Below are positions 14,142-61,747 of a stretch of DNA of 64,000 bases, piece after piece; position 1 is the first letter of the stretch; the number at the start of each line of letters is the position of its first letter. The notes beneath the pieces are model-generated. The model saw only the letters and a program-made list of their open reading frames with translations. It was not told where the DNA came from and did no database searches. The translations under genes were made by a program, and so were the position numbers. The stretch comes from Shigella phage phi25-307, in the sequence record MG589383, one strand, 5' to 3'.

Positions 14142-14423
14142 CTATTTTTCTGAAGCGCCTGAAATATATTTTTCAAGACGTTGTTTCATCAACGAGCCGT
14201 TCTTAGCGATTTCTTCTGGTTTATCGCACATACGCAACAAGGCTTCAAGCTTAACGATATCACTGGTGCGCTCAAATTTGCGAGTATCTATCTTACTAGC
14301 AAGTTCAGAAATACGTGCTAATAGACTTTCAGCTTCAACCAAAGCTGCACCTAGCTTAGTTGCAAATGTGTCAGTAGCTTCGTTAAGAATAGATTCTGAT
14401 AAAAATTCACTATATGTTTTCAT
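14142..14423 (-). CDS. internal-protein-like protein with divergent CTS, 93 aa
   Basis: Starts [11 protein letters not shown] from ATG 14421-14423 (ATGA overlap with e stop); lies between e and denV. Confidence 0.65.
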
Positions 14424-14908
14424 ATATACGCTTTCCAAGTTCCTGTTTTAAATGTCGAGATTACGCGTTTCGCGCGATTAGGTGTCTGACGATACCATTT
14501 AGATTGGGCTAGATTTACTGCCGCTTCGTCCCAACGTTTCTGTTGAAGCATACGAAGAGAATTAGTAAAACCAGCGACGCCTGCTACACCCATTTGGAAG
14601 ACCATATTGACCAATGCACATCGACGAACTGCATCTAAAGAATCATATACCGGTTTAAGTTTAGCATTACCCAAGATTCCGCGAACAGCTTTATCAACGT
14701 CTTCATTAAATAACTTTTCAGCCTCATCAAGGGTAATTGTACCGTTGCATTTACGTCCGATCATTCTGTCAAGTTCAGCTTTAGCTACGGCTAAAGACGG
14801 GTTCTTTGTTACTAAATGACCTATGCCAATCGTCCAAAAGCCTTCAGTGTCTTTGTATAAAGTCAGTCTAAGACCTTCGTCATTACGAAGCATTTCAAAT
14901 ATATTCAT
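14420..14908 (-). CDS. e: lysozyme (endolysin)
   Basis: [29 protein letters not shown]...[27 protein letters not shown] matches T4 lysozyme; start ATG 14906-14908 with GGGAGG RBS inside a hairpin. Confidence 0.9.
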
Positions 14909-14910
14909 AA

Positions 14911-14934
14911 TACCTCCCACGTTTATAGGAGGTA
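14911..14934 (-). promoter_or_regulatory. RBS-sequestering hairpin in the lysozyme e leader
   Basis: Inverted repeat tacctcc / ggaggta with a 10-nt loop; the GGAGG RBS of e lies in one arm; TATAAAC late-promoter-like motif in the loop. Confidence 0.5.
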
Positions 14935-14942
14935 TTTATTAC

Positions 14943-15401
14943 TTATAGGATGGTAGTGAGCACCTTATATAATGATTTGCCCATTACATATTCCCATTGA
15001 GAAGGTTTAATTAAAGCGAATGCATCAAATTCAGGAATCTGTCGTCCGTCTGGGAATGTATGATAGGAATTACAAACACTGTTTCTGAATTGCTCGTGCT
15101 CTACAGGGATGGTATATAGGAACAGATGAATATTCTTATTGTCTGAGTAACGATGTTCACCTAGGTCTTTCAGGAAGGCAGGGTCATATTGTGTAAACCC
15201 AGTTTCTTCTTCGCATTCACGAATAGCTGCTTCAATAGGAGATTCACCGGGCTCGACACGACCTTTAGGAATATCCCACCGATGAGCTAAAGAACCTTTA
15301 GGACGAGAACCAGTTACACGCCCCATGAATAATTCTTTATCTTCGGTAAGGAAAATAATACCAGCTGATAGTTCTTTCACTTTATTTTTCTTACTCATCA
15401 T
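14943..15401 (-). CDS. nudE: Nudix hydrolase NudE
   Basis: Nudix box GRVEPGESPIEAAIRECEEETG; start chosen at ATG 15399-15401 (AGGAA RBS; ATGATGA overlap with upstream stop). Confidence 0.85.
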   Translation of the reverse strand: MMSKKNKVKELSAGIIFLTEDKELFMGRVTGSRPKGSLAHRWDIPKGRVEPGESPIEAAIRECEEETGFTQYDPAFLKDLGEHRYSDNKNIHLFLYTIPVEHEQFRNSVCNSYHTFPDGRQIPEFDAFALIKPSQWEYVMGKSLYKVLTTIL

Positions 15402-15796
15402 CTCAAATTCCTGCATTCGGTAATAAAACGTTCAACTTCATTATTCTTGGCCTTTATCTTGTCTTTACGTTCCTGTAAACTACTTTTAACAAGATTAATA
15501 ATGATGCCTACAGTACCTCCACCAATTATACCACCAATAATACTTACGATAGTAGATGCTAATAAGATGGCGATAATATCTAGTACAGCAAAGGCACTTA
15601 CTTTAGTACTAAAAAACCATATAGACGGTACAAATATAATCCATCCTGTTATCCATTGGCACTTATTGAAAAACCTTTCAAGCTCAGCTTGAGTTGTTCG
15701 TATTACTTCATCAATAGGTTGATATCCATTAATGTATCTGTTCACGATAATACCTGCTGGCTGGTCGATTTTAAATTCTTGGCAAATATGTTTCAC
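15398..15796 (-). CDS. membrane protein with C-terminal ERFITECR motif, 132 aa
   Basis: Hydrophobic segments incl. GGIIGGGTVGIIINL; only a GTG start at 15796 with no obvious RBS, so 5' end uncertain. Confidence 0.45.
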   Translation of the reverse strand: MKHICQEFKIDQPAGIIVNRYINGYQPIDEVIRTTQAELERFFNKCQWITGWIIFVPSIWFFSTKVSAFAVLDIIAILLASTIVSIIGGIIGGGTVGIIINLVKSSLQERKDKIKAKNNEVERFITECRNLR

Positions 15797-16201: not shown

Positions 16202-16231
16202 ACTATAACATAGTCCTATCATGTTGTAAAC
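16202..16231 (-). promoter_or_regulatory. early promoter with flanking inverted repeat
   Basis: gtaaac 16226-16231, actata 16202-16207; flanked by ataggact/agtcctat. Confidence 0.55.
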
Positions 16232-17496: not shown

Positions 17497-17526
17497 ACTA
17501 TAACATAGCCCTATCTTGTTGTAAAC
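17497..17526 (-). promoter_or_regulatory. early promoter with flanking inverted repeat
   Basis: gtaaac 17521-17526, actata 17497-17502. Confidence 0.55.
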
Positions 17527-21697: not shown

Positions 21698-21748
21698 ATG
21701 CCTTGCGGCAACCTTGTCGGGGTTCCACCTGCTAAGGCAAGTGTTTGT

Positions 21749-27883: not shown

Positions 27884-27891
27884 TATAAATA
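27884..27891 (+). promoter_or_regulatory. late promoter TATAAATA for gene 53
   Basis: Exact TATAAATA 43 nt upstream of the gp53 start. Confidence 0.6.
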
Positions 27892-27898
27892 GTATTAT

Positions 27899-27906
27899 TA
27901 TTTATA
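27899..27906 (-). promoter_or_regulatory. late promoter TATAAATA for gene 4 (divergent)
   Basis: Plus strand tatttata, 27 nt upstream of the gp4 ATG on minus strand. Confidence 0.6.
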
Positions 27907-27933: not shown

Positions 27934-28509
27934 TTGTTATTTACATTCTTCGACCCAATAGGATATAGTGCTAAAACAGTTAATAAGAACGCACCTACTA
28001 TTCCTATGACAGACATATTTCGTAACTATAAAGAGTACTTTAAGCGTGTTGCTGCCAATTATAGATTACGTTCTTATTACATTAAAGGCTCTCCGCGTCC
28101 TGAAGAACTAGCAAACATAATTTATGGCAACCCTCAATTATACTGGGTCCTTTTGATGTGTAATGACAACTATGATCCGTATTATGGTTGGATTACATCT
28201 CAGGAAGCAGCGTATCAAGCTTCTATTCAGAAATATGCTAATGCTGGCGGTGACCAAGTTCTTTATCATATTAATGAAAATCGTGAGAAATTTTACAATT
28301 TGGTTTCATATCCGGACGAGCCTTTAGTGTGGTACGATAAAGGTGATGAAGCTCGTAAGTATCCGCAATATAAAGGACCTTTAGCTGCAGTAGATACTTA
28401 TGAAGCGGCAGTATTAGATAATGAAAAACTTCGTAAAATAAAAATTGTTGCAAAAGAAGATATAAACTCGTTTATCACAGATTTGATTCGTGAGATGGAG
28501 ATTGCATAA
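27934..28509 (+). CDS. 53: gp53 baseplate wedge subunit
   Basis: MLFTFFDPIGYSAKTVNKNAPTIPMTDIFRNYK matches T4 gp53 as recalled; initiation codon is TTG at 27934 after GGAAGGAGA RBS, no in-frame ATG. Confidence 0.9.
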   Translation: MLFTFFDPIGYSAKTVNKNAPTIPMTDIFRNYKEYFKRVAANYRLRSYYIKGSPRPEELANIIYGNPQLYWVLLMCNDNYDPYYGWITSQEAAYQASIQKYANAGGDQVLYHINENREKFYNLVSYPDEPLVWYDKGDEARKYPQYKGPLAAVDTYEAAVLDNEKLRKIKIVAKEDINSFITDLIREMEIA

Positions 28510-61710: not shown

Positions 61711-61718
61711 TATAAATA
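61711..61718 (+). promoter_or_regulatory. late promoter TATAAATA upstream of uvsW
   Basis: Exact motif 30 nt before the uvsW ATG, in the divergent inh/uvsW intergenic. Confidence 0.5.
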
Positions 61719-61747
61719 TAACTATATTTATTACATGGTAATTTGAC

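Follow-up and report, generated by a model that had tools for sequence, protein, structure and literature searches.

A probable counterpart of the T4 gene e translational switch in an RB69-like Shigella phage

Gene e of Shigella phage phi25-307, which encodes the lysozyme, is preceded by a leader that we consider to be orthologous to the translational switch of T4 gene e and of the Mosigvirus (RB69) type, with a probability of roughly 0.85. Our analysis covered a window of 64,000 nucleotides (the whole stretch of DNA that was analysed, from sequence record MG589383), in which the ribosome-binding site (RBS) of e lies within a hairpin and a putative late promoter overlaps the 5′ arm of the same hairpin. 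RNA folding predicts that the site is closed in transcripts that read through from upstream and much easier to open in transcripts that start at the late promoter. The e leader is a textbook example of how promoter choice can control translation through the position of the mRNA 5′ end.

In T4, early read-through transcripts fold the leader and lysozyme synthesis is reduced about 100-fold (McPheeters 1986, via PMC3014915), and transcripts from two late promoters, which are without the 5′ part of the structure, are well translated (PMC3014915). In the legend of a figure in that source, the mapped 5′ ends are marked as products of the upstream promoter. The review further states that close T4-type relatives are predicted to possess leaders of this sort, in all of which the region for the 5′ strand contains a late promoter, and gives the structure as absent in Aeh1, 44RR, 25, and 31 (Uzan & Miller 2010, Virol J 7:360, Figure 5A; PMC3014915). 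The T4 mechanism had been described in an initial annotation of the window, made from the letters of the DNA, as one in which the RBS is occluded early and late transcripts starting internally are translated; this account matches the literature (PMC3014915). Our literature search for RB69 or phi25-307 found no 5′ end mapping, structure probing, reporter assay, or start-site data.

Results

The window is that of an RB69-like Mosigvirus. Over the e region it is 99.4% identical to phage S143_2 and 98% identical to RB69, and the RB69 leader is identical to that of the window. Gene e (14420..14908, minus strand, as are all features discussed below unless otherwise stated) encodes a T4-type lysozyme/endolysin of 162 amino acids (Pfam Phage_lysozyme, 7.5e-14) with about 83% amino acid identity to T4 e, and its ATG (14908-14906) corresponds to the T4 start (MNIFEML...). 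A mechanically generated ORF list had given a GTG at 14920 as the start of e; we rejected this candidate because it is sited in the hairpin loop, whereas the ATG at 14908 fits the T4 N-terminus and has a properly spaced Shine–Dalgarno (SD) sequence. The gene 5′ of e is nudE (14943..15416), a NUDIX hydrolase gene identified by Pfam (NUDIX, 2.1e-16) and by synteny with T4 and RB69. Its stop codon TAA (14945-14943) is separated from the e ATG by a spacer of 34 nt, which reads AATAAATAcctccTATAAACGtgggaggtattATG on the minus (sense) strand; a second rendering of its letters in the sense direction is TAAgtAATAAATAcctccTATAAACGtgggaggtattATG. Judging from the Pfam matches and the T4 and RB69 annotation, this spacer between nudE (e.1) and e, which holds the hairpin leader, is the orthologous position of the T4 leader. 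On the other side of e lies an internal-head-protein-like ORF of 93 amino acids (14142..14423; PHROG 3499 'internal head protein', 1.2e-46), whose ATG shares bases with the stop codon of e (ATGA); it is therefore likely to be expressed together with e from one late transcript.

The 5′ arm of the leader hairpin begins 6 nt beyond the nudE stop codon. A perfect inverted repeat of 9 bp pairs AAUACCUCC (14936-14928) with GGAGGUAUU (14917-14909), and the minimum free energy (MFE) fold adds U·G, A-U, and U·G pairs to give a 12-bp helix (14909-14920 / 14925-14936). In this 12-bp form, the 5′ arm AAUACCUCCUAU (14925..14936) and the 3′ arm GUGGGAGGUAUU (14909..14920, with the perfect 9-nt portion at 14909-14917) enclose a tetraloop, AAAC (14921..14924); with the 9-bp perfect repeat alone, the loop comprises 14918-14927. 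The hairpin alone has a predicted energy of −15.3 kcal/mol. The SD sequence GGAGG (14913..14917), 4 nt upstream of the ATG, lies wholly within the 3′ arm, the anti-SD core CCUCC (14932-14928) lies in the 5′ arm, and the 3′ arm reaches the base directly before the AUG. The initial annotation had assigned the GGAGG of e to one arm of an inverted repeat, and it does lie there; the coordinates given in that annotation are all correct. The 7-bp repeat that it described (tacctcc, 14911-14917; ggaggta, 14928-14934) is also real, but the length of the stem was understated, the helix being 9–12 bp long.

The leader structure exceeded what is expected by chance in four tests. The fold of the 81-nt context had a z of −2.9, with 1 of 200 dinucleotide shuffles folding equally well, and in the read-through RNA the SD had an unpaired probability of about 0.0001. 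We also carried out a constrained shuffle, in which the octamer of the putative promoter, the SD, and all flanks were held fixed and only the 15 nt between octamer and SD were permuted. None of 1000 such shuffles occluded the SD as fully as the native sequence, and about 13% of them had an SD unpaired probability below 0.05. In a third test, we ranked the 92 called genes of the window by the energy needed to open the RBS (positions −13 to +3). Gene e came first with 16.8 kcal/mol, the median being 5.0 (z = 3.6). The fourth test was recurrence, the structure being present again at the orthologous site of many genera (see below).

A comparison of the folding of early read-through RNA with that of late RNA had been proposed as a check on the switch, and its outcome agreed with the proposal. 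Opening the stretch from SD to AUG costs 17.0 kcal/mol in the read-through RNA and 5.75 kcal/mol in the predicted late RNA, so that the two differ by 11.26 kcal/mol. Under the identical metric, the T4 leader gave 15.15 versus 3.90 kcal/mol (difference, 11.25), and ten other lineages gave differences of 6–12.6 kcal/mol. The late RNA used here, started as specified by the octamer AATAAATA (see below), begins UAUAAACGUGGGAGGUAUUAUG and is without the CCUCC anti-SD. It is predicted to be only partly open, the SD being about 19% unpaired on average, because the SD region pairs weakly with codons 7–9; T4 is comparable in this respect (0.28). By the yardstick of opening energy, the leader is thus predicted to be as good a switch as the validated T4 one.

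We then considered where late transcription would start. T4-type late promoters consist of an 8-bp element spanning −13 to −6 (PMC1524935, PMC2988020). A putative gp55-type late promoter octamer of this kind, AATAAATA (14933..14940), ends 24 nt before the ATG, and its final 4 nt double as the beginning of the 5′ arm. A near-consensus octamer had been noted earlier as lying just upstream of the hairpin; the octamer is present at 14940-14933, although it shares 4 nt with the 5′ arm rather than preceding it. It is an A(−13) variant of TATAAATA, and this single deviation is of the commonest T4 type: A(−13) occurs in 9 of 50 T4 late promoters and is the commonest variant there (PMC2988020), and RB69 and other relatives often have A or T at −13 (PMC1524935). 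From the −13 to −6 rule (PMC1524935) and the P23 scaffold (PMC7892883), we infer a late start at 14926..14927, with U14927 or A14926, the sixth nucleotide past the octamer, as +1. CCUCC would then occupy −5 to −1 and therefore be absent from the late RNA.

The distribution of related octamers in the window bears on this assignment. AATAAATA occurs at 10 sites, four of which are within 60 nt of a gene start; these precede e (24 nt), rI and inh (26–27 nt), and gp15 (43 nt), all of which are late-class genes. For TATAAATA, 8 of 19 sites are followed within 60 nt by a called gene start, with a spacing of 24–32 nt, and for TATAAACN the corresponding count is 2 of 20 (the e site and one at 28461 on the plus strand). 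The segment at −5 to −1 of the e promoter, CCTCC, is GC-rich. Late promoters usually have AT-rich DNA 3′ of the octamer, which is a tendency (PMC2988020); a GC-rich segment at this position is also found in T4, whose own e promoter has CCTTC and whose P23 has CTCCT at −5 to −1 (PMC7892883). An HMM-based list published for RB69, with 31 late promoters, contains no site between 58,753 and 72,830, leaving the e promoter uncalled. This omission is not strong counter-evidence, because the similarly placed AATAAATA before inh was apparently missed as well (the list has no minus-strand entry for it).

To see how widely the arrangement is shared, we collected e loci from IMG/VR and from named phages, which yielded 19 distinct leaders; protein identity ranged down to about 60%. 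All 19 have NATAAATA (A most often, also T and G) at −28 to −34, in every case overlapping or abutting the 5′ arm, with the anti-SD core in −5 to −1 throughout, and in all 19 the SD is essentially fully paired in the predicted read-through RNA. The layout is present in at least 10 genera of Tevenvirinae (Mosig-, Tequatro-, Dhaka-, Gapriver-, Marfa-, Kagamiyama-, Moon-, Jiaoda-, Karam-, and Tegunavirus). The helix is extended by different means in different groups: outward in Mosig-, Tequatro-, Dhaka-, and Gaprivervirus, where the promoter AAUA pairs with UAUU of the SD–AUG gap, and inward (UAUC/GAUA) in Marfa-, Karam-, Moon-, Jiaoda-, and Kagamiyamavirus, where the sequences are CUCCUAUC / GAUAGGAG. 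In every lineage the 3′ arm is the SD and stops at the AUG, and the sequence and length of the loop vary freely. Individual base changes were observed within the stem. In SP18 a U-A pair has given way to C-G, a compensated change that makes the SD GGGGG and the anti-SD CCCC; in EcS1 a C-G pair has been replaced, again with compensation, by A-U; and T4 and CIP9 have C-G to U·G changes. A perfect second octamer, TATAAATA, occurs solely in Tequatrovirus; the other genera have TATACTCA, TATAATCA, TATC.., and similar sequences in its place.

A covariance model built from 22 leaders recovered the window site with 47.4 bits (E = 1.6e-7), and a search of Rfam with 14300-15500 returned no family at E ≤ 1. 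Covariation was counted in a single register on alignments made with MAFFT and re-aligned with Infernal, in which the ACCUCC and ACUCC lineages are one column out of phase. This count gave 69.8% paired cells, a score that 282 of 500 shuffles equalled or exceeded; the result is non-significant because the two lineage groups differ by one base in register. The lineages were then analysed each in its own register, so that the support from covariation consists of lineage-wise inspection and a few compensatory events. Outside Tevenvirinae the arrangement dwindles. The Aeh1-like phage Assk showed no occlusion; it has a terminator-like hairpin upstream, and its RBS is free. Our survey thus agrees with the 2010 review on the Aeh1 group.

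Repression of e in early RNA presupposes that early transcripts reach it. A consensus scan found a candidate early (sigma-70 type) promoter, TTTACA-17-TATAGT with a TG element, at 16202..16230, upstream of ORFs that lead into nudE and e, and a second, similar candidate at 17497-17525, both resembling T4 early promoters. One weak terminator-like site was found at 15692-15678, inside an e.2-like ORF. Published predictions for RB69 put strong early promoters upstream of e, at 67,959 and 69,254, and leave 71,365-59,923, a span that includes e, free of terminators. Early read-through into e is therefore plausible on these predictions. Separately, ribosomes that finish at the nudE stop codon, 6 nt from the stem, might open its outer A-U pairs. 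In T4, the gap from stop to stem is 7 nt and thus nearly the same, and T4 repression holds nevertheless; by analogy, the same may apply here.

Two octamers in the leader could in principle serve as the late promoter, since a degenerate one, TATAAACG (14920..14927), stands where, by comparison with T4, the second perfect TATAAATA of that phage is located. It starts in the inner 5′ arm, crosses the loop, and reaches one base into the 3′ arm. The initial annotation had pointed to TATAAAC in the loop, on the sense strand, as late-promoter-like; the motif is there, as TATAAAC(G) at 14927-14920, but probably has no such role. That TATAAACG acts alone, or that both octamers act as in T4 with its perfect loop TATAAATA, is unlikely in our estimate. 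Besides its position, what speaks for TATAAACG is that it retains A(−12), A(−9), and A(−8): in the gp55 cryo-EM structure, base-specific pockets take the flipped −12, −9, and −8 bases (PMC7892883). Since AATAAATA and TATAAACG both keep these bases, however, the structure does not discriminate between them. On the other side, TATAAACG deviates from the consensus at two positions, −7 and −6, and deviation at more than one position is found in just 2 of 50 listed T4 late promoters (PMC2988020). Its kind is also poorly represented near gene starts (2 of 20 sites for TATAAACN versus 8 of 19 for TATAAATA), and a perfect second octamer is confined to Tequatrovirus. Moreover, with a loop 2 nt shorter than that of T4, the predicted +1 of TATAAACG falls at −6 relative to the ATG, giving an RNA, GGUAUUAUG, from which the SD is deleted. 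Given the two mismatches, the want of association with gene starts, and the loss of the SD, TATAAACG is probably a non-functional look-alike of the second T4 promoter, which would reduce the two-promoter layout of T4 to one here. The upstream octamer AATAAATA is most likely the operative late promoter. Substitution of AATAAATA to ACTAAATA and of TATAAACG to TCTAAACG would separate the contributions of the two motifs.

The hairpin itself might have come about incidentally, if an octamer followed by CTCC chanced to complement a strong SD nearby, and have no regulatory role. CTCC past the octamer is not unique to e, as T4 P23 has TATAAATACTCCTG; the covariation count in a single register was non-significant, and the constrained shuffles brought the unpaired probability of the SD below 0.05 in the proportion given above. 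Against this stand the rank of the e RBS as the most occluded among the 92 genes, the absence of an equal among the 1000 shuffles, and the retention of the helix in at least 10 genera by differing pairs and compensatory changes while the loop varies freely. The T4 structure, in addition, has been demonstrated to repress translation, by about 100-fold (PMC3014915). We regard an incidental hairpin as very improbable. Still less credence attaches to a hairpin that mainly serves the nudE mRNA, as a 3′ stabiliser or processing barrier, or that weakly attenuates read-through into e. Stable stem-loops can block 3′ exonucleases, and this one, with its −15.3 kcal/mol, stands just past the nudE stop codon. 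The stem is followed by AUGAAUAUAUUUG, without a U-tract, and the terminator scan did not flag the hairpin, for which reasons we rejected a terminator reading. A 3′ stabiliser would have no need of a 3′ arm that in all lineages coincides with the SD and runs up to the AUG, and the T4 precedent is translational (PMC3014915), although the two roles are not mutually exclusive. The reading that we prefer remains a translational switch on e.

Discussion

Our analysis suggests the following course of events for e. Early in infection, transcripts from upstream early promoters would traverse nudE into e and carry the entire 34-nt spacer, which would fold into the hairpin of 9–12 bp with CCUCC paired to the SD GGAGG. 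We propose that, with the SD paired to the anti-SD and the helix abutting the AUG, the 30S subunit cannot bind and no lysozyme is made. After the onset of replication, gp55-RNA polymerase would take AATAAATA (14940-14933) as its −13 to −6 element and start RNA at about 14927, directly 3′ of the anti-SD. The hairpin would then be impossible, and e would be translated. The early read-through RNA, the activity of AATAAATA, the late start site, and the translational outcome are what we infer in this scheme; the anatomy of the sequence, the predicted thermodynamics, the orthology with T4, and the conservation of the layout across genera were observed or computed directly.

The suggestion made at the outset, that the T4 arrangement is preserved here, is upheld computationally by the orthologous locus, the pairing of the SD, and the near identity of the opening-energy differences (11.26 versus 11.25 kcal/mol). 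The two leaders share the nudE–e spacer as their locus, the 3′ arm GGAGGUAUU, the SD–AUG spacing, a late-promoter octamer overlapping the 5′ arm, and the size of the switch (11.3 versus 11.25 kcal/mol). They differ in several details. The orthologous T4 leader, TATAAATAccttcTATAAATActtaggaggtattATG, contains two perfect late-promoter octamers (TATAAATA), whereas phi25-307 has the A(−13) variant as its upstream octamer and the degenerate TATAAACG in the loop. A C-G pair in the stem here is U·G in T4, and the loop has 10 nt instead of 12 and here can zip to a tetraloop, the hairpin being about 3 kcal/mol more stable (−15.3 versus −12.3). The T4 switch is experimental, and the one described here is predicted. 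These differences from T4, namely a single variant promoter and a hairpin stronger by about 3 kcal/mol, are minor.

The same principle, by which the SD or AUG is masked in read-through RNA, operates in T4 soc, gene 49, and I-TevI (PMC3014915), where a late promoter in or next to the structure gives rise to translatable RNA (PMC3014915). These are different genes with different sequences, and the RB69 counterparts of soc and 49 fall outside the window. As to the e leader itself, the finding is already known, in that such leaders were predicted for T4-type phages in the 2010 review (PMC3014915). Compared with the leaders in that review, our survey adds post-2010 genera, energetics, and within-genome controls. 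An intact leader in an RB69-like phage thus confirms a published expectation and is no new biology.

Two consequences for annotation follow. The start of e is best placed at the T4-equivalent ATG, the RB69 GenBank record beginning 15 nt downstream, and A(−13) octamers should be accepted as late promoters. The comparative set of leaders also supplies natural stem variants, which could guide mutational tests.

We further put forward, as a tentative pair of ideas that we hold together and that may well prove wrong, that in at least 10 genera a single stretch of 5 nt in the DNA is under constraint twice over, as the spacer of the promoter and as the anti-SD of the RNA, and that Mosigviruses run the switch on a single, weaker promoter with A(−13) and a GC-rich spacer, a decayed loop promoter, and a stronger hairpin. 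If the single weaker promoter is indeed what these phages use, endolysin would be made later or at a lower level than in T4, and lysis would be tuned in a lineage-specific manner. The device as a whole would serve to prevent premature synthesis of endolysin from early read-through transcripts.

Start codon of e and the leader of its Nanhuvirus homolog

In the GenBank record of RB69 (AY303349; locus L002), e is annotated as starting at an internal ATG (MLRNDEG...), which lies 15 nt downstream of the ATG equivalent to that of T4 (L002 2269–2286, corresponding to window positions 14908–14891). Since the upstream ATG has a properly spaced GGAGG Shine-Dalgarno (SD) sequence and agrees with the T4 N-terminus, the sequence comparison indicates that RB69 e as deposited is probably 5 codons too short. 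Such a short annotation obscures the relation between the hairpin and the ribosome-binding site (RBS).

The e homolog of Cronobacter phage LPCS28, a Nanhuvirus, has an SD-sequestering hairpin of 14 bp (−17.8 kcal/mol; L062 346–394), longer than that of e in the window. It has no NATAAATA upstream; in its place, TCTAAATA spans the 5′ arm and the loop of the hairpin. TCTAAATA is similar to CTAAATA, the late-promoter consensus reported for Aeh1. The LPCS28 leader might therefore represent this same switch, with a divergent late promoter at its base.

Late-promoter octamers and further candidate masked RBSs

The AATAAATA octamer before e (RB69 ~65,713–65,720) is absent from the 31 predicted RB69 late promoters of Nolan et al. 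(2006; Additional File 5), a list that apparently also has no minus-strand entry for the inh site (RB69 ~114,7xx). From these two omissions, late promoters of the A(−13) type seem to have been under-called in that list. The window contains two back-to-back divergent pairs of late-promoter octamers, located on opposite strands ~7 bp apart. One pair consists of a plus-strand TATAAATA (61711–61718), which precedes a 504-aa ORF, and a minus-strand AATAAATA (61725–61732), which precedes inh; both members of the other (27884–27891, plus; 27899–27906, minus) are TATAAATA.

Next after e in predicted RBS opening energy were the starts at 21698 (plus), 25858 (minus) and 14083 (minus; denV), with values of 13.8–15.0 kcal/mol against a window median of 5.0. 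The folding predictions suggest that these may be additional structure-masked translation-initiation regions.

Regions flanking e

RB69ORF130c, a small ORF of ~225 bp between e.2 and nudE in RB69 (L002 1550–1786), is missing from the window (~15398–15416). In most RB69-like relatives the match is split into two pieces over 1276–1277 bp, compared with 1051 bp in the window; S143_2 is the only collinear one among those matched. The e.2-like membrane-protein ORF, situated between e and the candidate early promoters, contains a terminator-like stem that is weak (TCAAGC-TGA-GCTTGA and then AAGGTTTTTC; 15678–15692, minus). Were this stem active, less early transcription would be expected to read through into e.

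Downstream, e and the following minus-strand ORF (14423–14142) share an ATGA (14420–14423), in which the stop codon of e overlaps the start codon of that ORF. This ORF, which matches the PHROG ‘internal head protein’, and two further tandem minus-strand ORFs (13663–13403 and 13339–13025) share the N-terminus MKTY(S/Q/K)EF(L/I)(S/A)E, which resembles the capsid-targeting sequence of T4 internal proteins. Translational coupling of ORF 14423–14142 to e is probable, which would place this ORF, too, downstream of the hairpin switch.
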